Made by a program: the position numbers and the translations under genes
Assembly: GCA_963674785.1 (NCBI GenBank)
Contig: OY771555.1
Coordinates: 1,248,001 to 1,312,000 of the forward strand
Direction: 5' to 3'
Length of the DNA: 64,000 bases
Origin: Caldisericia bacterium
GTDB taxonomy: Bacteria > Caldisericota > Caldisericia > JAAYUI01
Notes under the pieces: model-generated
What the model saw: the letters and a program-made list of their open reading frames with translations, nothing else
What the model was told of the DNA's origin: nothing
Databases searched by the model: none
Shown here: positions 52,652 through 64,000 of the stretch, piece by piece
How positions within the stretch are numbered: the first letter of the stretch is position 1
How the letters are laid out: each line of letters opens with the position of its first letter

Positions 52652-54427
52652 CTATTCCTGATTCTTAAACTGAAGCTCGTAAAGTCTTTTGTAAACTCCG
52701 TCTTTTTCAAGAAGCTCATCATGTTTGCCTGACTCAATTATTTTTCCCTTACTAATTACCAGAACCTGGTCAGCATCTTTGATTGTTGAAAGTCTGTGGG
52801 CGATGACAATTGATGTCCTTCCAACCATCATCTTTTGCATTGCTTTTTGAATGAGCTCCTCTGATGCGGTATCGATTGAGCTTGTTGCCTCATCAAGAAT
52901 CAAGATGCTTGGGTCATGAGCAATTGCCCTTGCAAATGATAAAAGCTGTCTCTGACCAACTGAAAGGGTGGCACCACGCTCTGTGAGGATTGTATCATAT
53001 CCATCATCAAGTTTCATGATAAAGTCATCAGCACCAACAATCCTCGCTGCTTCTTTAGCTTTTTCACGAGTTATCCCTGAGAGTAATGTGATGTTTTCAA
53101 TGAGGGGGCCAGAGAAAATGAATGGATGCTGAAGCACAACTGAAATCTGTCTTCTCAAAGAATTAAAAGTGAGGTCATAGATTGATCTTCCGTCAATCTT
53201 GATGTCGCCATCCTGAATATCATATAGTCTTGACAAGAGACTTATGATGCTTGATTTTCCAGCTCCCGTTGGGCCAACAAGTGCAATCTTTTCTCCTGGT
53301 TTTACAGAAAATGAGACATCTTTCAGGACTGGTGTTCCGGGATTATAGGCAAACTGGACGTGTTCAAAATCAACTCTTCCTTCAGCTTTTCCTTCAAATA
53401 CTTCTGCATCTTCCTTTTCGGTGATTGTCACAGGTTCATCAAGCAGTCTGAAAATTCTTTCCGATGACGCCATCGCTGATTGAAGAATGTTGAATTTGTT
53501 TGAAAGCTCGTGGACAGAATTGTAGAGGTCTCTGACGTATTGCACAAACACCAATACAGTACCAACCATGATAAACTCCCCGAGAATCATGATGCTTCCA
53601 TACCACACAACCAAACCCATTGCAACAGTTGTCAGAAGGTCTGTTGCCTGGAAAAAGAATGAAAAATTCAGAACCGCTTTAACTTGTGATGCAAGAAGCT
53701 CCCCGCTGATACTTTTAAACATTCTTCTGTTTACTTTTTGTCTGTTGGCAATTTGAATTGCCATAACACCAGAAATACTCTCCTGAAGGAAGGCATTAAC
53801 TTTTGCCATCTTCACTCTCACTTCCCTGTAGAATTTTTGGGCAAAGTGAGCAAAGATTGTTGTGACAACAGCTACAAATGGTACAACTGAAACTGCAACA
53901 AGTGCAAGTCTGGAATCGATCAGAAACAACATCACGATTGTACCAATGGAGATAAATGTCCCTGCTAAAAGCTCCGGTACACAATCCACCAAGAAGTCAA
54001 GAATCGCATCAACATCTGATGTAACTCTTGTCATGAGCCTTCCAACTGGGTTCTTATCATAATATGACATCTGCAGGTCTTGGAGCTTTTTGAAAATGTT
54101 GTTCCTCATATCACGGAGGATAAACTGACCGGTATCCAAGATGATGATTGATTCAAAGTAATTTACAACTGACCTTACGATAACCATCCCCAGTATTGCT
54201 AGAGATATCCATGTCAGTCCGTAGAAGTCATACTTTGCAATATAATTATCAACTGCTATTTTTATGAGGTATGGAGTAACAACATACATTGCATTCCAGA
54301 AAAGGAGTGCTGCGATTCCAAATGTAAGTCTCCATTTATAAGGCTTAAGATAAAAGAGCATCCTTTTGATAAGTCTTGAATCTAACGCTTTTCCTATTAT
54401 TTCTTCTTCATGTCTATATTCAGGCAT
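52652..54427 (-). CDS. ABC exporter half-transporter (TMD+NBD), MdlB/YheH/TM288-like
   Basis: Six-TM domain, GPTGAGKS, degenerate signature LSVGQ, canonical Walker B ILDE, IAHRLS. Confidence 0.93.
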   Translation of the reverse strand: MPEYRHEEEIIGKALDSRLIKRMLFYLKPYKWRLTFGIAALLFWNAMYVVTPYLIKIAVDNYIAKYDFYGLTWISLAILGMVIVRSVVNYFESIIILDTGQFILRDMRNNIFKKLQDLQMSYYDKNPVGRLMTRVTSDVDAILDFLVDCVPELLAGTFISIGTIVMLFLIDSRLALVAVSVVPFVAVVTTIFAHFAQKFYREVRVKMAKVNAFLQESISGVMAIQIANRQKVNRRMFKSISGELLASQVKAVLNFSFFFQATDLLTTVAMGLVVWYGSIMILGEFIMVGTVLVFVQYVRDLYNSVHELSNKFNILQSAMASSERIFRLLDEPVTITEKEDAEVFEGKAEGRVDFEHVQFAYNPGTPVLKDVSFSVKPGEKIALVGPTGAGKSSIISLLSRLYDIQDGDIKIDGRSIYDLTFNSLRRQISVVLQHPFIFSGPLIENITLLSGITREKAKEAARIVGADDFIMKLDDGYDTILTERGATLSVGQRQLLSFARAIAHDPSILILDEATSSIDTASEELIQKAMQKMMVGRTSIVIAHRLSTIKDADQVLVISKGKIIESGKHDELLEKDGVYKRLYELQFKNQE

Positions 54428-56222
54428 TGTTTATACCTTTCCTGTTTGATTGGTTATTTATCTCGCTGTGAAGCCTCTGCTTCTCTACAAGCTCAGCATA
54501 ATAACCATTCTTTGCAATCAATTCTTCATGTGTTCCATCTTCAGTAATACATCCACCCCTAATAACAATTATTCTATCACAAAGAGTCATAATACTTACT
54601 CTATGGGCAATAATAACCGCTGTCTTACCCTCTAAGGTTGGAGCAATAGACTCAATAATTGCAGACTCAGTATGTGTATCAACTGCTGATAGTGGATCAT
54701 CAAATATCATAATTGGTGGATCAGCAAGAACAGCCCTTGAAATAGCAACCCTCTGTCTTTGTCCACCAGAAAGAGTAACTCCTCTTTCCCCAATTACAGT
54801 TTCATATCCTTCATCAAACCCCATTATCTCATCATGAAGTTGAATCTTTTTTGCAACTTCTTCAATCTCTCCTCTTGTTGCCTCTGGTTTAATAAATGAT
54901 ATATTCTCAGCAATAGTTGAACTAAATAAGAACGCATCCTGTGGAACATATCCAATCGATGATCTTAGTTTTCCAAGATCCCAATCTCTCACATCAACAC
55001 CATCAATCTTTACAGAACCAGAAGCTACATCCCATGTCCTAAGTAACATCTTAGTAAATGAACTCTTACCAGCACCAACGGGACCAACAATACCAATCAC
55101 CTGACCTTTTGGTACCTTCAAACTCAAACCCTCAACTGAAATCGAAGAATCATCATACCTCAATGTAGCATCTGTTATCTCAATATCTCCTCTAACTGTT
55201 TCTGGGGTGTAGGGGTTTTCTCCTGTTTTGATTGTTGGTTTTGACTGGAGTATCTCTTCAATCCTGCCAGTTGAGACTTTGGCTCTCTGGAATGCCTCGA
55301 TTATGTGACCAAAACTCATTATTGGCCATATGAGCATCACGATGTAAACAATTGAGCTTGAAAGTTGTCCAATTGTTAATGCATCTTGCATAAACAGATA
55401 ACCACCAAACCAAATGATTCCGATTATTGGTATCCATACCACAACAGACAGTAGTGGTCTGATGAATGATCTTGTTTTATTAAGTTTTTTGTTAACTTCC
55501 ACATACCCATCCATAAGCCCTGAAAATCTTTTGGTCTCATTATCACTTTGAGCGTACGACTTGATTGTTCTTGCTCCGGAGAAATTCTCCTGTATTCTGT
55601 TTGAGATTTTATCAAATGATTTTTGTACAGATTTGAATTGTCTGTGAATCACTTTGGCTATTGGTATCGGAACAAGCGTTATCAATGGTATAATAACCAT
55701 CATGCTTAGTGCCAATTGCCAAGATGCTCCAAAGATTACCGAGAATGCAACCGCGAGTCTGAACAGTGAGTTTGGAACCATTATTGTCCCAAAAGTCAAA
55801 AAACGCATAATCATTCTGGTGTCAGATGCTGCTCTGTTCATGATTTCTCCGGTTTTCATGCTGTTGAAGAAATCATTTGAGAGAACCATCAGTTGACCAT
55901 ATATCTCATTTCTGATTTTGAAGGATATTCTTCTTGCTATCACGTGAATTGTGTATCTGCTGAAGAAAAATACTACAACTTTCACCATTATGATTCCGAT
56001 TATCCAGAAGAATATCTGCAGAATCGACGTCCTGGCGTCGCTCATTTGAATTAAGCCTTTGTTGGTGTCAACTGCAATATCAATACTTTTTCCAATTAAC
56101 ATTGGAATTAGCATATCTATTGCAGACGCTAGTAATCCAACTGTGGCAGCAATATATTTTACAAGGTATGGTTTTAAAGCCCTGTAATAAAATTTGAAGA
56201 CATATATTTTTCTATTATCCAT
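54420..56222 (-). CDS. ABC exporter half-transporter (TMD+NBD), MdlA/YheI/TM287-like
   Basis: GPVGAGKS, LSGGQ, degenerate Walker B IFDD, IAHR. Confidence 0.93.
   Translation of the reverse strand: MDNRKIYVFKFYYRALKPYLVKYIAATVGLLASAIDMLIPMLIGKSIDIAVDTNKGLIQMSDARTSILQIFFWIIGIIMVKVVVFFFSRYTIHVIARRISFKIRNEIYGQLMVLSNDFFNSMKTGEIMNRAASDTRMIMRFLTFGTIMVPNSLFRLAVAFSVIFGASWQLALSMMVIIPLITLVPIPIAKVIHRQFKSVQKSFDKISNRIQENFSGARTIKSYAQSDNETKRFSGLMDGYVEVNKKLNKTRSFIRPLLSVVVWIPIIGIIWFGGYLFMQDALTIGQLSSSIVYIVMLIWPIMSFGHIIEAFQRAKVSTGRIEEILQSKPTIKTGENPYTPETVRGDIEITDATLRYDDSSISVEGLSLKVPKGQVIGIVGPVGAGKSSFTKMLLRTWDVASGSVKIDGVDVRDWDLGKLRSSIGYVPQDAFLFSSTIAENISFIKPEATRGEIEEVAKKIQLHDEIMGFDEGYETVIGERGVTLSGGQRQRVAISRAVLADPPIMIFDDPLSAVDTHTESAIIESIAPTLEGKTAVIIAHRVSIMTLCDRIIVIRGGCITEDGTHEELIAKNGYYAELVEKQRLHSEINNQSNRKGINNA
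54472..55214. repeat. 743-bp NBD-coding block duplicated at 56295-57037
   Basis: By eye 54472-55088 is identical to 56295-56911, with 9 mismatches in the remaining about 125 bp; offset 1823 bp. Confidence 0.92.
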
Positions 56223-56254: not shown

Positions 56255-58030
56255 CTATTCTCCTCTTCTTGTTCTTTCCTCTATCTCTGATCTGAGCCTC
56301 TGCTTCTCTACAAGCTCAGCATAATAACCATTCTTTGCAATCAATTCTTCATGTGTTCCATCTTCAGTAATACATCCACCCCTAATAACAATTATTCTAT
56401 CACAAAGAGTCATAATACTTACTCTATGGGCAATAATAACCGCTGTCTTACCCTCTAAGGTTGGAGCAATAGACTCAATAATTGCAGACTCAGTATGTGT
56501 ATCAACTGCTGATAGTGGATCATCAAATATCATAATTGGTGGATCAGCAAGAACAGCCCTTGAAATAGCAACCCTCTGTCTTTGTCCACCAGAAAGAGTA
56601 ACTCCTCTTTCCCCAATTACAGTTTCATATCCTTCATCAAACCCCATTATCTCATCATGAAGTTGAATCTTTTTTGCAACTTCTTCAATCTCTCCTCTTG
56701 TTGCCTCTGGTTTAATAAATGATATATTCTCAGCAATAGTTGAACTAAATAAGAACGCATCCTGTGGAACATATCCAATCGATGATCTTAGTTTTCCAAG
56801 ATCCCAATCTCTCACATCAACACCATCAATCTTTACAGAACCAGAAGCTACATCCCATGTCCTAAGTAACATCTTAGTAAATGAACTCTTACCAGCACCA
56901 ACGGGACCAACTATACCAATTACCTGACCCTTAGGTACTTTCAAACTTAAATCCTCAACTGAAATCGAAGAATCATCATACCTCAATGTAGCATCTGTTA
57001 TCTCAATATCTCCCCTCACTGTTTCTGGGGTGTAGGGATCAGAAGGTGATGAAACATCGGGTTTGATTTTGAGGATATCCCATATTCTACCAATCGAGAC
57101 TTTCGACCTTTGGTAGAGATTTATGATCCATCCAAGTCCGATCATTGGCCATATCAACATAACAACATAAACGAGGAACCCAGAGAGCTGACCGATTGTT
57201 ATGAATTTTGACATAAAGAGGTATCCACCGAACCAGATCACGCCGATGATTGGGATCCAGATAGAAAGTGAAAGTAATGGCCACCAAATAGCCCATATCT
57301 TGTTTATTGGTTTTACGGTATCAACGTATCCATCCATGAGTTCAGAAAATCTTTTGGATTCTTTGTCTCCCTGAGCATATGACTTGATTGTTCTTGCTCC
57401 AGAGAGGTTTTCTTGAATCCTATTGGAAACTCCATCGAAGTAGTGCTGAATTCTTAGGAAATGTTTGTGAATTTTTTTCCCAAGTACGTTTTCTATCAGC
57501 AAAACAAATGGCAGGAACACTAAAATGCTAAGTGAAAGCTGCCATGATATTGTAAACATGAAAACGAACGCCACCATTGTTCTGAGAAACGAACTTGGCG
57601 CAATTACTGAACCAAATGAAATAAACCTCATAATTGTCATCACGTCGGATGACGCTCTGTTCATGATTTCTCCGGTTTTCATTTTCCCGAAGAAGCTATC
57701 TGGAAGAATCATTAGTTTTTCGTATATCTTATTTCTAAGGTCATCTGAAACTTTTCTTCCCACAATGTGAATTGTATATCTGCATACGAAAAATATACTT
57801 ACTTTTGCAACCAAGATAATGACAGTCCAGATTAGAACCCAAAGGATAATTTGATTTGCTTCACTCTGAGGAATTTCTCCCTTTAATCCCATGTTTGCAG
57901 CATCAATGCTTTTTGCAATAAGCATCGGTATAATCATGTCAATTGCAGAGACGAATAATCCAAAGATTGATAAAACAAAACGTCCAAGATAGGGTCTAAG
58001 TAATTCGTAATATTGTTTGTATAATGACAT
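56255..58030 (-). CDS. ABC exporter half-transporter (TMD+NBD), second MdlA/YheI/TM287-like paralogue
   Basis: Same NBD as 54420-56222 except one residue, with a diverged TMD. Confidence 0.93.
   Translation of the reverse strand: MSLYKQYYELLRPYLGRFVLSIFGLFVSAIDMIIPMLIAKSIDAANMGLKGEIPQSEANQIILWVLIWTVIILVAKVSIFFVCRYTIHIVGRKVSDDLRNKIYEKLMILPDSFFGKMKTGEIMNRASSDVMTIMRFISFGSVIAPSSFLRTMVAFVFMFTISWQLSLSILVFLPFVLLIENVLGKKIHKHFLRIQHYFDGVSNRIQENLSGARTIKSYAQGDKESKRFSELMDGYVDTVKPINKIWAIWWPLLSLSIWIPIIGVIWFGGYLFMSKFITIGQLSGFLVYVVMLIWPMIGLGWIINLYQRSKVSIGRIWDILKIKPDVSSPSDPYTPETVRGDIEITDATLRYDDSSISVEDLSLKVPKGQVIGIVGPVGAGKSSFTKMLLRTWDVASGSVKIDGVDVRDWDLGKLRSSIGYVPQDAFLFSSTIAENISFIKPEATRGEIEEVAKKIQLHDEIMGFDEGYETVIGERGVTLSGGQRQRVAISRAVLADPPIMIFDDPLSAVDTHTESAIIESIAPTLEGKTAVIIAHRVSIMTLCDRIIVIRGGCITEDGTHEELIAKNGYYAELVEKQRLRSEIEERTRRGE
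56295..57037. repeat. 743-bp NBD-coding block, copy 2
   Basis: Matches 54472-55214. Confidence 0.92.
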
Positions 58031-58037
58031 GAACGGC

Positions 58038-58066
58038 AGTATACAGAAATGTTACCAATAAGTCAA
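58038..58066 (-). promoter_or_regulatory. sigma70-type promoter of the ABC operon (leaderless geometry)
   Basis: TTGACT-17 nt-TATACT ending 7 nt before ATG 58030; no SD. Confidence 0.75.
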
Positions 58067-58131
58067 CCGATGACTATTGATAAAGATGTAAAAATGTGCT
58101 AACATGCACGGAGAAACTAGGAGGTTTAAAG

Positions 58132-58794
58132 ATGGCAAATATGTTCAAAAGAATCAAAGACATTTTAGCAAGCAATGTATCAGATTGGCTCTCAAACATG
58201 GAAGACCCAGAAAAAATGCTTCCATACAAGATTGACGAAATGAAAACTGAGCTTGTAAAGGCAACCGATGCAACAGCAGAGGCTATGGCAATCCAGAGAC
58301 AGACTGAGATGAGGCTTGCAGATATTCAGGCAGACATCAAGAAGTACAACTTTGCCGCAGAAAAAGCTGCACAGAAGGGTAATGATGATCTTGCCAGAAA
58401 ATGCCTTGGCAGAGTGATTACACTTGAAAAACAGGAAAGTGCAAATATCAACTCTCTTGAAACCCAGGAAACAACTACAGAGAAACTCAAAGAGATCATC
58501 GAAGCACTCAAGGCAAAAATTGAGGAAGCCGAGATTAGAATGGATGAGCTTGTAGCAAGAAACAAAGCTGCCAAGGCTCAGGAAAAAGTTACAAAAGTAA
58601 TGGGCAACATTAATGTTGGCGATCTCGGAACAACATTCGATGATCTTGAAAAGAAAGTTATCAAACGTGAGCAGAAGGCTGCCGCACTCGCCGAACTTGG
58701 TGGATCAAAAGCGGATTCTCTTGACGATGAGATTGCTGAATACTCAGAAGAAGACGAAATTACAAAAAGACTTAATTCACTCAAAGGTGCATAA
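58132..58794 (+). CDS. pspA: PspA/IM30 family protein
   Basis: MFKRIKDIL...EDPEKML, GNDDLAR, long coiled coil, FDDLEKKV; AGGAGG SD. Confidence 0.93.
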   Translation: MANMFKRIKDILASNVSDWLSNMEDPEKMLPYKIDEMKTELVKATDATAEAMAIQRQTEMRLADIQADIKKYNFAAEKAAQKGNDDLARKCLGRVITLEKQESANINSLETQETTTEKLKEIIEALKAKIEEAEIRMDELVARNKAAKAQEKVTKVMGNINVGDLGTTFDDLEKKVIKREQKAAALAELGGSKADSLDDEIAEYSEEDEITKRLNSLKGA

Positions 58795-59189
58795 TGGGCG
58801 GTCTCTGGTATCTCCTGATTGCTGTTTTGGCTGGAATCGTCAGTGGTGTTATTATTGTCTTATTTAAGCGTGCAACAGCTGGAGTCTCAAAAAGTCAAAA
58901 CATTTCAAGATTGAAAATGGTTGAGAAACGCTGGTATAACTTCTCTGAAGACCTCAAACTTGTAAAAGACCTGGGAACAGATCTTGGAGATAAGTTTCCA
59001 AATGCAACCCCTGAAAGGGTTGAAAAAATAAAGGAACTTGCAAGAAAATTTGAGGGAGCTTGGTTCAGAGGAAAAGACGAATCAACCGGCGTTAAAACAA
59101 GTACCAACATGATGGAGACAATGACTACCTATGAGTATGAACGAATTCTAGAGAAACTTGAGGAAAATCTGGACAAGATATTCAAATAG
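58794..59189 (+). CDS. hypothetical membrane-anchored protein coupled to pspA
   Basis: TAATG stop/start overlap with pspA; N-terminal TM. Confidence 0.75.
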   Translation: MGGLWYLLIAVLAGIVSGVIIVLFKRATAGVSKSQNISRLKMVEKRWYNFSEDLKLVKDLGTDLGDKFPNATPERVEKIKELARKFEGAWFRGKDESTGVKTSTNMMETMTTYEYERILEKLEENLDKIFK

Positions 59190-59216
59190 ATTCCAATCAT
59201 ATTAATTGTGAAGCTG

Positions 59217-59251
59217 AAAAATGGCGTGTCGTAATGGCACGCCATTTTTTT
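59217..59251 (+). terminator. intrinsic terminator of the pspA operon
   Basis: ATGGCGTGTC-GTAAT-GGCACGCCAT followed by a T-run. Confidence 0.85.
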
Positions 59252-59416
59252 ATTGGATAAGGTTTAGCTAGTGGTGTTTCCGAATTATTATTGGATTGAG
59301 ATTTTGGATAGAGAGAGGGAGAAAAAAAGGAACCAAAACAAGAAGATGGGACTTTCATTCTTACGTTATTGTGTGTGTTTGAAATGTGAAAGGAGTTACA
59401 CAGTATAAAACAAAAG

Positions 59417-59448
59417 AAAAACCCCGCCCAAGAAACAGACGGGGTTTT
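59417..59448 (-). terminator. intrinsic terminator of the PQQ-propeller gene
   Basis: Minus strand CCCCGTCT-loop-GGGCGGGG followed by a T-run. Confidence 0.8.
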
Positions 59449-59477
59449 GGATATTAATTTAATAATGCAAACTACTA

Positions 59478-60686
59478 TTATCTATTGGTTTCCCAGACAA
59501 TACTTCCATCAGTGTCAATACAGATTGTTTTAAGCTCATCGTTTACTTTTCTTGCTGTGAAATAAAGCTTATCGCCATCAACAGCTGGTTTACATGAAAT
59601 ATAGTTAGGAGTTATGTTCTTCTTCCAAAGCTCACTAAGGTCTTCGTCAACGCAGATGATGTTTCCGGTATCTGTTCCGAAAATGATTTTTCCATCAACC
59701 TCAACTGGGCTGGAATTTACATATGCGTCTCTGCTTGAGAGAACATAGTGACCAAGTTGTTTGAATGTTCCATCTTCAAACTTATAAAGCCCATTTGTCT
59801 CAGTTTTGTCGCTCTGGCAACCAGCATAGATTGCACCATTAAAGGCTAGTGGTGTTGAGCGTGCCCATCTGACTTTATGAGACCATTCGGCATTATGTAT
59901 TTCAAAACCGTCTCCAGCCTTTGTTCCGTCGGCTGCATTTACTTTGTAAAGGTGGCTGTCATAGCTTCCGAAATAGATGTGTCCGTTATAGAGATTGAGG
60001 TTGCACTCGATTGCTGCACCATTTCTGTTTGCTGCTGAATCGGATTCATTCCATGGGTATGTGCCTGATCCCTCTGTCTGGAATGGCTTTTTCCATTTGC
60101 TGGATTTTTTTCCATTTTTGAGCTGGATGATTTCAACCTGACCAAAGAATGATGCTGCAAGGACACAATCATCAACGATAACTGGTCTGCTTACTGACCA
60201 TCCACCAAACCAATAGTTCCAAAGGAAAGTGCCATCGGTTTTGTAGGCTTCAATTGTCCCTTTACCAGCATTGATTCCGGTTGTTGGAACGATAACATAT
60301 CCGTCCTGGACGAGTGGCTGACCAAAAACACCCTTTGTGATTGGCATTCTCCATTCGATTGCACCTGTTTTTGCATCGATTTTGTGGAGGTGTCTGTATG
60401 GGAAGATTTCTGTTCCCAATACTGCATAAACTTTACCAGTTGATGCCTCAAGCTCTGGCGAAGCATAAACTCTATCTGTTGTTTCGATCTTCCAGACCTG
60501 TTTGCCATCGGATGCGTTGAGACCATAAAGTCCATCTGTGCCAATAGCGGTAATGACGATTCCGTCATAAATGGCTGGTGAAATTGACTGATAATATCCG
60601 CCTGCGAATGTTGGTGCACCTGTTGGTACAACTACAGAGATAGCGACGAGTGCAAGCAAAGTTACTGCAACTAGAAATTTCTTCAT
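59478..60686 (-). CDS. secreted PQQ-like beta-propeller protein
   Basis: Signal peptide after ATG 60686 (AGGAGG SD); SPAIYDG, DGKQVW, TGAIEW, YFGSYD, SSPV..GKIIFGT. Confidence 0.87.
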   Translation of the reverse strand: MKKFLVAVTLLALVAISVVVPTGAPTFAGGYYQSISPAIYDGIVITAIGTDGLYGLNASDGKQVWKIETTDRVYASPELEASTGKVYAVLGTEIFPYRHLHKIDAKTGAIEWRMPITKGVFGQPLVQDGYVIVPTTGINAGKGTIEAYKTDGTFLWNYWFGGWSVSRPVIVDDCVLAASFFGQVEIIQLKNGKKSSKWKKPFQTEGSGTYPWNESDSAANRNGAAIECNLNLYNGHIYFGSYDSHLYKVNAADGTKAGDGFEIHNAEWSHKVRWARSTPLAFNGAIYAGCQSDKTETNGLYKFEDGTFKQLGHYVLSSRDAYVNSSPVEVDGKIIFGTDTGNIICVDEDLSELWKKNITPNYISCKPAVDGDKLYFTARKVNDELKTICIDTDGSIVWETNR

Positions 60687-60845
60687 AGTAGTCCTCCTTA
60701 ACATGAAAGAGATTTTAGATTGTTACTGACTCCAGTCAAGGTAACTGGATGGTAAGAAATGAATAAAAATTGGTAAAATCGAAGCGTAACGATACTTGTG
60801 AATTTTTCCTTGTTTTTTCTTCCAAATTTGATGATAGTTTCCGAT

Positions 60846-62228
60846 ATGAGTGAACTACCAGGATACAAAGGAAAAGCGTTAGAGGTTTTATCAAGATTTT
60901 CAGCAAGAGTATGGGCGAAAGTCGAGATCGAAACTGATAGAGGAATATTTGTTGGAATTATTCTTCCAAGGGCTGAGCAGGCGGATGACCTTCATGTGGT
61001 CTTAAAGCTTATCACCGGATACAACATCGGAATTGCTGTCTCTAGCATCACGAATATCAAAGAGCTTGGTTATCGTGAAGCAAAATACAAAATCCCTGAA
61101 CAGGATTTCCCATTTGATGCTAAGAAACGAAATGTCACACTTCTTGGAACCGGTGGAACGATTGCGTCAAGACTTGATTATCGAACTGGTGCTGTTATTC
61201 CAGCTTTCAGTCCGGGTGAACTATATGGTGCTGTCCCAGAACTCGCAGATATTTGCAACCTGAAAACTGAAAAACTTTTTGGAGTTTTCTCAGAGAACAT
61301 GAGCTGGGAACAATACCGAATTCTGGCTGAAGCCATTGGTCGTGAAATTAACCAGGGTGCAGATGGAATCGTTATTGGTCATGGAACAGACACAATGCAC
61401 CACACAGCAGCTGCTCTTTCATATATGGTTCAGGATTCTCCAGTACCAATCGTCATGGTTGGTTCACAAAGATCATCTGATAGGCCATCATCTGATGCTG
61501 CATTCAACCTTCAGTGTGCTTGCAACACTGCAGCAAACGGTCAGATTGCAGAAACGCTTGTTTGCATGTTTGGGCCAACATCCGATTCATATAACCTTCT
61601 TCATCGTGGAACAAGAGTTCGCAAAATGCACAGTTCATATCGTTCAACCTTCAGAACCCTCAGTGATGTTCCAGTTGGAATGTGTACCCCTGACAAAGTC
61701 ACACCAATCAAAAAAGTTTTCAAACACAGAAGAAAAGACAGAAACGTAAAGATTGACACAGCATATGACGATCGTGTGACGATTGTTTATTATTACCCAG
61801 GAATGAAACCAGACATAATCGATTCACTTGTTAAGCGTGGTTATAAGGGTATCGTTATCGCTGGCACAGGTCTTGGTCATGTCAACAAGCCACTCTATGA
61901 GCCACTCACAAGAGCGGTCAATGCTGGTGTACATGTCTATATGACAGTCCAGACCCTTTGGGGATTTGCACAGATGTATGTCTATGATACCGGTCGCGAC
62001 CTTCTTGAGATGGGTGTTCAGTCAGCTGGCAACATGACCCCAGAGGCAGCATACATCAAGCTTGGTTGGGCATTGGGTCACTCACACGACAAAGACGAAG
62101 TACATAAGCTCATGGTAGAGGATATCATAAATGATGAGATCACGGAGCGTGAGCCACCTGATGGGTATCTCGTATTCCAAGGTGGACTTCCTGAAATTGA
62201 AGACTACTTGAGTAAGCATATCAGATAA
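60846..62228 (+). CDS. gatD: Glu-tRNA(Gln) amidotransferase subunit D (GatD)
   Basis: GatD N-terminal domain (GIILPR...HVVLKLITGYNIGI), TGGTIASRLDYRTGAV, SENM, HGTDT, GSQRSSDRPSSDA, RGTRVRKMHSSYRSTF, GTGLGH, VYDTGRDL, PEAAYIKLGWALG. Confidence 0.92.
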   Translation: MSELPGYKGKALEVLSRFSARVWAKVEIETDRGIFVGIILPRAEQADDLHVVLKLITGYNIGIAVSSITNIKELGYREAKYKIPEQDFPFDAKKRNVTLLGTGGTIASRLDYRTGAVIPAFSPGELYGAVPELADICNLKTEKLFGVFSENMSWEQYRILAEAIGREINQGADGIVIGHGTDTMHHTAAALSYMVQDSPVPIVMVGSQRSSDRPSSDAAFNLQCACNTAANGQIAETLVCMFGPTSDSYNLLHRGTRVRKMHSSYRSTFRTLSDVPVGMCTPDKVTPIKKVFKHRRKDRNVKIDTAYDDRVTIVYYYPGMKPDIIDSLVKRGYKGIVIAGTGLGHVNKPLYEPLTRAVNAGVHVYMTVQTLWGFAQMYVYDTGRDLLEMGVQSAGNMTPEAAYIKLGWALGHSHDKDEVHKLMVEDIINDEITEREPPDGYLVFQGGLPEIEDYLSKHIR

Positions 62229-62265
62229 CACCAAGACTCACTAAAACTAAATATTAGAAACTATA

Positions 62266-62301
62266 TAATGCCATAAGATTAGAAATAGTCTTGTGGCATT
62301 A
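62266..62301. terminator. hairpin between convergent gatD and KAP NTPase
   Basis: TAATGCCATAAGATTA-GAAA-TAGTCTTGTGGCATTA stem with G-U pairs and a GNRA loop. Confidence 0.65.
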
Positions 62302-62500
62302 GTTGTATATTGGGATAATTATTTTCCTATGTATAGCAATATATTACATTAATTAAGACTATTAATACAAATAAAAATATTTAAGTAATATGTATACTTT
62401 TGATAATTAGTATTATCAAGATATTTGTATAAAAATAGACATTAAAAACGTTATTACACATCTAAAATATTTATTATGCGTAAATAGATTATATTACAGT

Positions 62501-63895
62501 CTATTGTTCTATTAGCATGCTGAAATATTTATTATGGTTTTCAAATAGCTCTATACTATTTGAGTTGTTTTCTCTAAGTTCTGCTAAGCGGGTATTGATA
62601 TTCTGTTCTTGGTAATTTCTTTCTCCGGTTACTGAGATTTTTGCTGCTCTACTAAAAAATTTAAGGTACTCAGTTACCATTATCGAATCTATTTTGTCAA
62701 GTTCGAGTCGTTTGAATGCTTCTTCTCCCCAATCTGAAATTATCAAGCCATTCCTGTTTGAAAAAAGTAAGCGTACATCCCTAAGTTCGGCAAAAACCTT
62801 CGGATAGTAATAATAAAGCCAGCATAAACCCCAGAATTCGTTCCAGTTTACTTTCTCTTCGAAGAGAGATGCTCCAAATCTAAAAATGTTTATCAAGTTT
62901 TTGGCTTCTCTAATAGTTTTTACAGTTTCGACTGATAATTCGAACTCCTTAGATTTCGAAAACTTTTTTGCTTCTTGCAGTTTTTCTGAAGTAGATATTG
63001 TGTTAAAAGAAGGCTTATGTTTAAACTGTAAGTTGACTATATGTCTAGTTAGGAGCTTAGATAGGTTGCTTGTCGTTACTTTTGGCATATATGTTGGAAA
63101 TGTGATCATTTTTCTAATATAGTCTAATCCATTTCCACCAACTTCTTTTTTTATATTATTTGCCGTTGTGATTTGGTCATATGCTACAACAGTGTTTATG
63201 TTAGGTAAATCAGTCACCAATCTTATAACCTTTAACATTGTGAGGATCTCTTTTGATTGTAGTCTGTCCATGTCATCAATCAGGATTACTACCTTTCGAC
63301 TGAAGCTTCTAAGATTTCTTTCAAGCCTGTTTTTAATATCAAAAAAATCTTCTGGCATCTTTCCATATAAAAATGATTGAACACAATCAATAACTAGTTC
63401 AGGTATCTTAAATACAGGGTTGATTGTTGAGATTGCACCCATTACTTTCCCAAGTTTAATCAAATCATCACTTATATTAGGATTGCTTGTACCAATGGAT
63501 TTTGCGATTCTGTTTAGAAATGCTTCAATAATTTCCTTTTCACTACCAAAAAACCAGGGATCAAATTCAATCACAATTGGCATTTGTTTTCTCAGATTCC
63601 TAATGTATTTCTTCTTTCCTTGGCAACCTAGCTTTTTGAATTTTTCTCTGTTGCGAAAAGAATAAAGGAAGAACTTTTCGCTTTTAAGATAGCTTTTTAC
63701 AAAACCTAACATGCTAGATTTTCCAGAACCCCAAGGACCTGCAATTCCAATTGAATAATTACCACTATCAGTTGGGTTACAAGCGATTTTTGTAATCCTC
63801 TTTGCGTGGTTTTTAAATTTAAACAAATCATTTTTTGGATCACTGATTGGTTTGTCATCCTCATAGCCTAACTTCATTTTTGCTTTTTCAGTCAT
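62501..63895 (-). CDS. KAP-family P-loop NTPase
   Basis: DKPI...DLF, Walker A GPWGSGKSS, FDPWFF, Walker B ILIDDMDRL, DYIRKMI, TIREAK; GGAGG SD before ATG 63895. Confidence 0.9.
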   Translation of the reverse strand: MTEKAKMKLGYEDDKPISDPKNDLFKFKNHAKRITKIACNPTDSGNYSIGIAGPWGSGKSSMLGFVKSYLKSEKFFLYSFRNREKFKKLGCQGKKKYIRNLRKQMPIVIEFDPWFFGSEKEIIEAFLNRIAKSIGTSNPNISDDLIKLGKVMGAISTINPVFKIPELVIDCVQSFLYGKMPEDFFDIKNRLERNLRSFSRKVVILIDDMDRLQSKEILTMLKVIRLVTDLPNINTVVAYDQITTANNIKKEVGGNGLDYIRKMITFPTYMPKVTTSNLSKLLTRHIVNLQFKHKPSFNTISTSEKLQEAKKFSKSKEFELSVETVKTIREAKNLINIFRFGASLFEEKVNWNEFWGLCWLYYYYPKVFAELRDVRLLFSNRNGLIISDWGEEAFKRLELDKIDSIMVTEYLKFFSRAAKISVTGERNYQEQNINTRLAELRENNSNSIELFENHNKYFSMLIEQ

Positions 63896-64000
63896 TTCAC
63901 CCTCCAGCAAATAAATGTACAATAACATGATTGCTCACGCAATATTGGTAACATTTTCACAATTTCTGTCGTACTATAAGAAAAAACATGGAGAAGTTTA

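Follow-up and report, generated by a model that had tools for sequence, protein, structure and literature searches.

A predicted GatDE amidotransferase beside GatCAB in a bacterium related to Caldisericota, with relatives under many bacterial phylum labels

We analyzed a 64,000-nucleotide (nt) stretch of the genome of a Caldisericia bacterium (contig OY771555.1, positions 1,248,001 to 1,312,000), hereafter the window, and focused on a gene near its end that an earlier note, made from the letters alone, had read as an archaeal-type gatD in a bacterial chromosome. Judging from its sequence, the gene at 60846-62228 encodes a genuine GatD, one of the two subunits of the Glu-tRNA(Gln) amidotransferase GatDE; a gene for the second subunit, gatE, lies a short way beyond the window end, and both belong to a bacterial-type GatDE lineage that occurs under many bacterial phylum labels. 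In the reading that we favor, with a rough probability of 0.6, gatD and gatE would encode a working GatDE that turns Glu-tRNA(Gln), made by the glutamyl-tRNA synthetase (GluRS), into Gln-tRNA(Gln), either in parallel with the amidotransferase GatCAB or with the tasks divided between the two enzymes. The window genome (G000) represents the less common layout of this lineage, in which GatCAB and GatDE are both present, no glutaminyl-tRNA synthetase (GlnRS) was found, and the genes of the two GatDE subunits are unlinked.

The genes for GatD and GatE

gatD: 60846..62228, plus strand; 460 amino acids (aa); predicted glutaminase/asparaginase-type subunit of the heterodimeric GatDE (NF003217/TIGR02153 equivalogs and three Pfam domains)
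gatE: G000:C1:1314411-1316363, equal to L007:8411-10363 (66411-68363 in window numbering), plus strand; 650 aa; intact, outside the window

The open reading frame (ORF) of gatD occupies 60798-62228 on the plus strand; the ATG at 60846 yields the 460-aa protein, and an alternative ATG at 60831 agrees with the 465-aa database protein P0001. The product exceeds the equivalog cut-offs of both GatD models (NF003217, 485.5 bits with the cut-off at 310; TIGR02153, 482.1 bits with the cut-off at 324), and Pfam places GatD_N (PF18195, residues 23-72, 46.9 bits), Asparaginase (PF00710, residues 96-286, 177.7 bits), and Asparaginase_C (PF17763, residues 310-423, 119.6 bits) along it, in agreement with the full GatD architecture, N-terminal domain included, that had been described for the window. 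The solved GatDs 1zq1_A and 2d6f_A align with the window GatD end to end (E about 1e-108), compared with an E of 2e-39 for the best plain asparaginase structure, and the protein also lies above the type I asparaginase subfamily model TIGR00519 (363.1 bits; cut-off, 260.5). Alignment with 1zq1_A places T105 in TGGTIASR, T181-D182 in HGTDT, and K260 in RVRKMH; the Thr/Asp/Lys catalytic motifs are intact, as had been stated, and all 90 bacterial-type GatDs compared keep the four residues unchanged. By motif position, we take these residues to be the nucleophile and the triad of the active site. The GatD site is described as a Thr nucleophile together with a triad of Thr, Lys, and Asp (PMC2330236).

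The statement that this gatD has no adjacent gatE holds inside the window and fails just outside it: the gatE start lies 4183 nt downstream of the gatD stop, 2.4 kb past the window end, and the apparent absence is a window-edge effect. Three genes, encoding a KAP-family NTPase and two BD-FAE esterases, separate the pair. GatE clears the cut-offs of both TIGR00134 (437.7 bits; cut-off, 319.55) and NF003107 (518.5 bits; cut-off, 456), and it aligns at full length with the solved GatEs (2d6f_C, E 2.4e-98; 1zq1_C, E 2.9e-97), whereas GatB structures match it at residues 97-292 only. The Mg2+ ligands of Methanothermobacter thermautotrophicus GatE are His15, Glu157, and Glu184 (PMC2330236); by alignment, these correspond to H25, E167, and E194 of the GatE studied here, which are invariant in 68 of 68 bacterial-type GatEs.

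A bacterial host in which no GlnRS was found

The window genome, one contig of 2,233,174 bp, is rated 92% complete with 0.02% contamination. For its sole 16S rRNA gene, the bacterial model gives 1492.6 bits and the archaeal one 1002.8 bits. Ribosomal protein S3Ae occurs only in archaea and eukaryotes; it was not found in the window genome, and the same search was positive only in a real archaeon (G045, below) and in four archaeal control genomes. By scripted tRNA analysis, 45 of the 47 tRNA genes have an encoded CCA end, and tRNA-Tyr has a long arm. The closest named GatD loci are labeled Caldisericales (89% identity) and Caldisericota (80%), and their GatDs are identical to those of same-genus and same-family genomes, respectively. 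The host is a bacterium, with Caldisericota as its nearest named kin, which bears out the bacterial context originally proposed. An archaeal host or archaeal contamination was considered and rejected on the basis of the 16S score, the failure to find S3Ae, the tRNA traits, the host-like composition, and the syntenic neighbors. The suspicion that the contig might be chimeric at this point likewise fell away, given the single contig, the syntenic neighbors, and no visible break; one contig of run X2 covers 58000-64000 without differences, though it is possibly the source assembly. The G+C content of gatD (43.7%) and gatE (40.0%) is close to that of gatA, gatB, gltX, and asnS (40-42%; genome, 39.1%), and the G+C content at third codon positions (GC3) of gatD and gatE is likewise similar to that of gatA, gatB, and gltX. 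This host-like composition, together with a gene order of PQQ-type propeller, gatD, and KAP NTPase and/or esterase that recurs in relatives' loci, indicates that gatD and gatE are long-term residents.

With regard to the synthesis of Gln-tRNA and Asn-tRNA, the window genome encodes a complete GatCAB (GatC, 66 bits; GatA, 536.1 bits; GatB, 560.4 bits; all above cut-offs), an asparaginyl-tRNA synthetase (AsnRS, 478.6 bits), an archaeal-type nondiscriminating aspartyl-tRNA synthetase (AspRS, 554.5 bits on NF003483), and one GluRS of bacterial type (562.9 bits). The search for gatE, gatCAB, and glnS that had been suggested thus returned the first two, and no GlnRS was found in the window genome, where the top match is the GluRS itself, at 61.7 bits against a cut-off of 425.8. 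Since no GlnRS was found, Glu-tRNA(Gln) must be made, and the single GluRS must charge tRNA-Gln; from this gene content, we infer that the GluRS is nondiscriminating. The GluRS discrimination determinant at the position of Thermus thermophilus Arg358 is described as lineage specific (PMC3927822).

Both tRNA-Gln genes (CTG and TTG) and the tRNA-Asn gene carry U1-A72 and G73. A first base pair of A1-U72 had been put forward as the GatDE-type signature, as opposed to U1-A72; the pair could be read in both tRNA-Gln genes, and it turned out to be of the bacterial type. Both tRNA-Glu genes (G000:C1:1170192-1170266 and 2125330-2125404) begin with a G1-U72 wobble pair and tRNA-Asp with G1-C72, and A1-U72 occurs only in tRNA-Trp and one tRNA-Ser of this genome. 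M. thermautotrophicus GatDE reads the A1-U72 pair of tRNA-Gln (PMC2330236, PMC9499178), and bacterial GatCAB serves U1-A72 tRNAs (PMC2811023). The tRNA-Gln(CTG) gene adjoins that of tRNA-Glu(CTC), the two lying 23 nt apart.

GatE is described as having a short conserved basic loop at the site of the 3-10 turn with which bacterial GatB reads U1-A72 (PMC2811023). The corresponding loop of the host GatE, GKVRRG, is GatE-like, and the other 68 bacterial-type GatEs are similar (KVRT in 20 of the 69, KVRR in 10, LVRT in 8, and others); the GatB of the window genome has an insert at the 3-10-turn site that is missing from its GatE. A GXXAXGX motif is reported in the GatE tail domain (PMC2811023). Searched for as G..A.G or G.A..G, it was found in none of the 69 bacterial-type GatEs; G045 has it in its second GatE (GMASIG), as do the solved GatEs 2d6f_C and 1zq1_C (GMGAMG), so that the comparison is with three canonical GatE sequences only. 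The bacterial-type GatDE lineage differs from the studied archaeal enzyme in its host, its tRNA determinant, and its tail motif.

Distribution and phylogeny of the bacterial-type lineage

Among 41 genomes of the class, GatD exceeded the cut-off in G000 and in all 10 other genomes of its family, which span three genera, and in none of the 30 genomes from four other families. GatE exceeded its cut-off in exactly the same 11 genomes, with GatB-level matches only elsewhere. GlnRS was above the cut-off in 2 of the 41 genomes, both of another family, and was not found in the other 10 genomes of G000's family. The restriction of GatDE to one family and the scarcity of GlnRS indicate that the class relies on GatCAB, to which G000's family added GatDE. 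The family-limited presence of gatD and gatE and their nesting inside the bacterial-type clade (below) indicate that the family probably gained the two genes from another bacterium, with vertical inheritance since. Between gatD and gatE there are about 3 kb in G001, but 38 kb in the case of G007 and 290 kb in that of G002; most draft genomes of the family have the two genes on different contigs. In two family genomes, the gatE match has one in-frame stop each (G001:C35:14216-16132, TAG; G005:C16:19592-21499, TAA); in the same-genus locus L028, gatE is one unbroken tblastn match.

The gene had been taken for an isolated oddity, a premise that its wider distribution does not sustain. In the protein database, the best 120 of 8000 scored candidates are 68-100% identical to the window GatD, and the labels of those with names include WOR-3, Zixibacteria, Krumholzibacteriota, Acidobacteria, Spirochaetes, and one Thermoplasmatota. 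Species-level contigs gave at least 598 stretches with a GatD relative (of 600 candidates), ordinary archaeal GatDs included, and the best 80 of these (64-89% identity, one genome per species) made up our set of loci. Of these 80, 78 carry bacterial labels, one is unlabeled, and one is labeled Thermoplasmata; the bacterial labels, which are the submitters' own names for genome bins and may be wrong, include Bacteroidota, Ignavibacteriota, Calditrichota, Cloacimonadota, Zixibacteria, Fermentibacteria, Fibrobacterota, Gemmatimonadota, Planctomycetota, Myxococcota, and Lentisphaerota. Two hosts are cultured strains, Marinifilum flexuosum DSM 21950 and Labilibaculum sp. K2S.

In 70 of the 80 loci, gatE lies within the locus, and several of the other ten have no upstream flank. 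Among the 34 loci with listed ORFs, 27 show a tight gatE-gatD operon, with a GatE ORF of 632-720 aa that ends at most 40 nt from gatD or overlaps it; L054 and L067 are arranged differently, L055 and L084 have a split or short GatE ORF, and for L071 and L107 ORF picking gave no call. At L048:4373-7917 (Bacteroidales), a 412-aa ORF stands between gatD and a 769-aa ORF with the GatE match. No conserved neighbor (tRNA, synthetase, or other) was found among 52 proteins flanking 26 operon loci; these are ordinary bacterial genes, and only three pairs share a family (PhoH/PIN, NUDIX, and HDOD). Across phyla, GatD is unusually conserved, at 64-69% identity versus 37-52% for GatE. A 943-aa protein, P0122, carries GatB_N at residues 24-304 and a complete bacterial-type GatD at 490-935 (55% identical to the window GatD); it could be a natural fusion of the N-terminal part of GatE with GatD, or an artifact of gene calling or a frameshift.

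To characterize the company of GatDE, 20 of the 80 genomes were sampled, five as long-contig or cultured genomes and 15 to spread the phylum labels. GlnRS was above the cut-off in 17 and GatB in 6 of the 20, with both in 4, GatB only in G050 and G052 (as in the window genome), and neither in one; AsnRS was present in all five genomes tested. These counts are rough, as sampled bins may be incomplete or mixed. One host stands apart. G045, a 5.2-Mb genome with a Thermoplasmata label (loci L067, L108, and L120), is a real archaeon, with S3Ae at 239 bits; for 16S, only a 123-nt fragment matched, scoring 103.2 bits on the archaeal versus 83.5 bits on the bacterial model. It encodes two GatDs, one of the bacterial type and the other grouping with archaeal-type rows, and two GatE ORFs, so that the clade is not purely bacterial. 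It also has a GlnRS at 755 bits and another match to the GlnRS model, at 215 bits; reviews state that archaea lack GlnRS.

In a FastTree phylogeny of 213 rows, the bacterial-type GatDs form one clade of 94 rows (support 100), with the Caldisericota rows nested within it (support 98), and quick IQ-TREE searches under LG+C20 agree with this clade. The nearest sequences outside it are Asgard GatDs (Sigyn-, Loki-, Hod-, Thor-, Hel-, Odin-, Njord-, Baldr-, Frey-, and Jordarchaeia), where the labels were assigned through close relatives and most of the other tree rows carry none. A split that unites Asgard and bacterial-type GatDs against all others has support of 96, 99, and 99 in three IQ-TREE runs, the Pyrococcus and Thermoprotei sequences falling on the opposite side, and the stem of the bacterial type measures 0.35-0.47 changes per site (support 100). 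The adjacency of the bacterial-type clade to the Asgard GatDs is therefore solid, and it carries no claim on donor or direction. Two quick trees rooted by type I asparaginases nested the bacterial type beside Asgard rows; this placement was dropped because, in an approximately unbiased (AU) test, a tree with all other GatDs as one clade was not rejected (p 0.764); its score exceeded that of the unconstrained quick search by 22.6 log units. The window GatD might also have clustered with AnsA asparaginases; instead, it is separate from four distant AnsA sequences of GatDE-bearing genomes (support 98-100). Two Asgard-related GatD relatives of 604-606 aa, P0301 and P0315, have an added Archease domain (PF01951, precomputed Pfam).

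Neighboring genes and transcription

PQQ/BamB-like beta-propeller: 59478..60704, minus strand; PQQ_2, 85 bits; divergent from gatD and not part of the enzyme
Terminator-like hairpin: 62266..62301, plus strand; 38 nt past the gatD stop, with a 16-pair stem, a 4-nt loop, and a T-rich tail
KAP-family P-loop NTPase: 62501..63928, minus strand; KAP_NTPase, 137.2 bits; between gatD and gatE and not part of the enzyme

The flanking genes had been correctly named as a PQQ propeller and a KAP NTPase. The former is a conserved left-hand neighbor in the family, adjoining gatD at 9 of 13 loci from relatives (L013-L017, L019, L022, L028, and L029), and homologues of the latter (30-37% identity) stand next to gatD in L018, L019, L021, L022, and L028. 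The KAP NTPase gene has a G+C content of 33.1%, against 39.1% for the genome, and may be a later insertion that helped to part gatD from gatE; its match to the anti-phage QatA model is weak (40 bits; cut-off, 600). The hairpin suggests that gatD is here a single-gene transcription unit, a prediction based on a consensus match only, two such sites being found within 2 kb against 1.0 +/- 1.2 in shuffled sequences. Four contigs of 91-230 nt from a wastewater metatranscriptome (run X1) match 61385-62232 only, with 2-12 differences; we rejected them as a sign of gatD transcription because the run was itself found by means of gatD and such libraries may contain DNA.

Farther upstream, two tandem ATP-binding cassette (ABC) transporter genes (54420-56222 and 56255-58030, both on the minus strand; 600 and 591 aa) are identical in translation over their C-terminal ~260 residues and differ in their membrane halves, a pattern that resembles the outcome of gene conversion or of a partial duplication in the recent past. 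Elsewhere in the genome, the only 16S gene (G000:C1:183597-185132) lies about 1.6 Mb from the tRNA-Ile/tRNA-Ala pair at 1824047-1824210. Such a pair usually sits within the rRNA spacer, and the rRNA genes of this genome may be unlinked.

Function and alternative explanations

Two options had been offered for this GatD, namely, an archaeal transamidation route with a distant gatE or repurposing of GatD as an ammonia donor or asparaginase. The former is the better supported, given an intact gatE nearby, no GlnRS found, and strict co-occurrence of the two subunits in the family; the latter is unsupported. In the proposed pathway, the single bacterial-type GluRS would charge tRNA-Gln with Glu, and GatE would bind the resulting Glu-tRNA(Gln) and phosphorylate its glutamyl side chain with Mg2+ held at H25/E167/E194. 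GatD (nucleophile T105; T181-D182-K260) would free ammonia from Gln or Asn, and transfer of this ammonia to GatE would yield Gln-tRNA(Gln). GatDE and GatCAB might share the synthesis of Gln-tRNA or split the work in archaeal style, with GatDE serving Gln and GatCAB, together with the nondiscriminating AspRS, serving Asn. The analysis establishes that the genes are present and intact, that they co-occur, and which pathway genes and tRNA features accompany them; activity, substrate, and division of labor are what we infer by homology to the archaeal enzyme. Several observations weigh against this reading. The two genes are unlinked in this genome, and in two relatives 38-290 kb separate them. 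In the host, tRNA-Gln carries U1-A72 instead of the A1-U72 pair read by M. thermautotrophicus GatDE, so that tRNA recognition must differ from that of the studied enzyme. The complete GatCAB could cover the entire task by itself, which is apparently the situation in the sister families, and on gene content GatDE is thus not needed. Finally, the presence of GlnRS in 17 of 20 and of AsnRS in 5 of 5 sampled hosts implies that the selective value of the clade is not simply that of a sole route to Gln-tRNA.

The main rival to this reading is a functional shift of the bacterial-type GatDE, toward another or broader tRNA specificity (e.g., Asp-tRNA(Asn)) or toward a conditional back-up, which would remove mischarged Glu-tRNA(Gln) or, under limitation of the usual route, form Gln-tRNA from Asn or Gln. 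A shifted role would explain why GatDE is retained beside GlnRS, AsnRS, or GatCAB, and it would fit the sampled gene content (GatB in 6 of the 20), the host's U1-A72, and GatEs that keep the basic first-base-pair loop while lacking the tail motif in all 69 cases. The archaeon G045, with both types of GatD, two GatE ORFs, and a GlnRS, suggests that the types are not simple duplicates, and the contrast in conservation between GatD and GatE across phyla also favors a shifted role. Yet no result points to a substrate other than Glu-tRNA(Gln), which certainly exists in the window genome, both subunits exceed strict equivalog cut-offs, the flanking proteins hold no conserved neighbor, and the co-occurrence counts are rough. 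We therefore regard a shifted role as rather unlikely, if a serious contender.

That GatD acts alone, as an asparaginase or glutaminase supplying ammonia without GatE, seems to us highly improbable. The apparently monocistronic gatD with its terminator-like hairpin, its distance from gatE in relatives, and its score above the type I asparaginase model would fit such a role; however, 11 genomes have both subunits and 30 have neither, the GatD_N domain is kept, and GatD stands apart from the four AnsA proteins. Archaeal GatD, moreover, has no glutaminase activity unless GatE and Glu-tRNA(Gln) are present (PMC2330236). We give still less credence to gatD and gatE being the decaying leftovers of a transfer or the product of archaeal contamination or a chimeric join. 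Redundancy with GatCAB on gene content and the scattering of the subunit genes could be read as decay, but both frames are intact, their catalytic residues are invariant, and all 11 family genomes, of three genera, retain the pair. Host-like composition, syntenic bacterial neighbors, and a single contig with 0.02% contamination speak against an artifact, as does the run X2 contig, with the reservation made above about its origin.

Significance

In the literature searched, from which subscription journals were mostly absent, we found no characterized bacterial GatDE, and the worry that such an enzyme had already been described in print found no echo there. Public databases already name such proteins GatD in bacterial bins; the gap is one of literature and function, not of detection. 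Published reviews and papers call GatDE an "archaeal signature protein" (PMC2330236, 2008), state that it "occurs exclusively in archaea" (PMC2811023, 2009), and still treat it as archaea-only in 2022 (PMC9499178), and in these works arguments on LUCA (the last universal common ancestor) and on the coevolution of tRNA-Gln with GatDE rest on this restriction (PMC2330236, PMC2811023, PMC9499178). This premise is undercut by the well-conserved GatDE lineage that many bacterial phyla carry. A 2008 review (PMC2330236) posed as an open question why two amidotransferases are maintained in some organisms, and hosts with U1-A72 and the usual company of GlnRS reopen it. The cultured hosts M. flexuosum DSM 21950 and Labilibaculum sp. 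K2S make the role testable. It is tempting to speculate further, at odds well short of even, that GatDE is no archaeal signature at all: a bacterial-type lineage nearest to Asgard GatDs might have spread to many bacterial phyla and a few archaea, had its tRNA recognition retuned (U1-A72, with loss of the tail motif), and been kept beside GlnRS/AsnRS or GatCAB for a distinct task, for example, surveillance of mischarged Glu-tRNA(Gln) or, under nitrogen stress, Gln-tRNA synthesis with another amide donor. In that event, this Caldisericota family would offer a natural instance of a bacterium in which two amidotransferases are laid out as in archaea, with GatDE serving Gln and GatCAB serving Asn.

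Comparison with known systems

A precedent for an apparently redundant indirect route exists in Deinococcus, Thermus, and Bdellovibrio, where GatCAB stands beside AsnRS/GlnRS and serves tRNA-dependent asparagine synthesis (PMC4206432). Those cases concern GatCAB and Asn, whereas here the enzyme is GatDE and no missing biosynthetic step was identified. Bacterial GatCAB is predicted to share its overall chemistry with GatDE, GatE being a paralogue of GatB (GatB models give 99-161 bits on GatE); it differs in using the amidase-family GatA and GatC instead of the asparaginase-like GatD, and GatB differs in its 3-10 turn and a Lys-rich tail motif. The AnsA asparaginases have a core homologous to that of GatD, as the TIGR00519 score and the matches to asparaginases of known structure (E 2e-39 and weaker) indicate, but they are two-domain proteins of about 330 aa with neither GatD_N nor a GatE partner. 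The Asgard GatDs named above, at 43-47% identity, are the nearest sequences outside the clade and are set apart from it by the long stem; non-Asgard archaeal-type representatives are about 40% identical to the window GatD. The closest studied systems are the archaeal enzymes of M. thermautotrophicus (2D6F) and Pyrococcus abyssi (1ZQ1), which are alike in having two subunits with the same domain order, in aligning at full length (E about 1e-108 for GatD and about 1e-98 for GatE), in the Thr/Thr-Asp/Lys residues of GatD and the Mg2+ ligands of GatE, and in the short basic GatE loop along with the region missing from GatB. In contrast to these enzymes, the GatDE described here belongs to a bacterial host with U1-A72 in tRNA-Gln, has a GatE tail without GXXAXGX, would depend on a GluRS of bacterial type, and is encoded beside GatCAB and, in most other sampled hosts, beside GlnRS.

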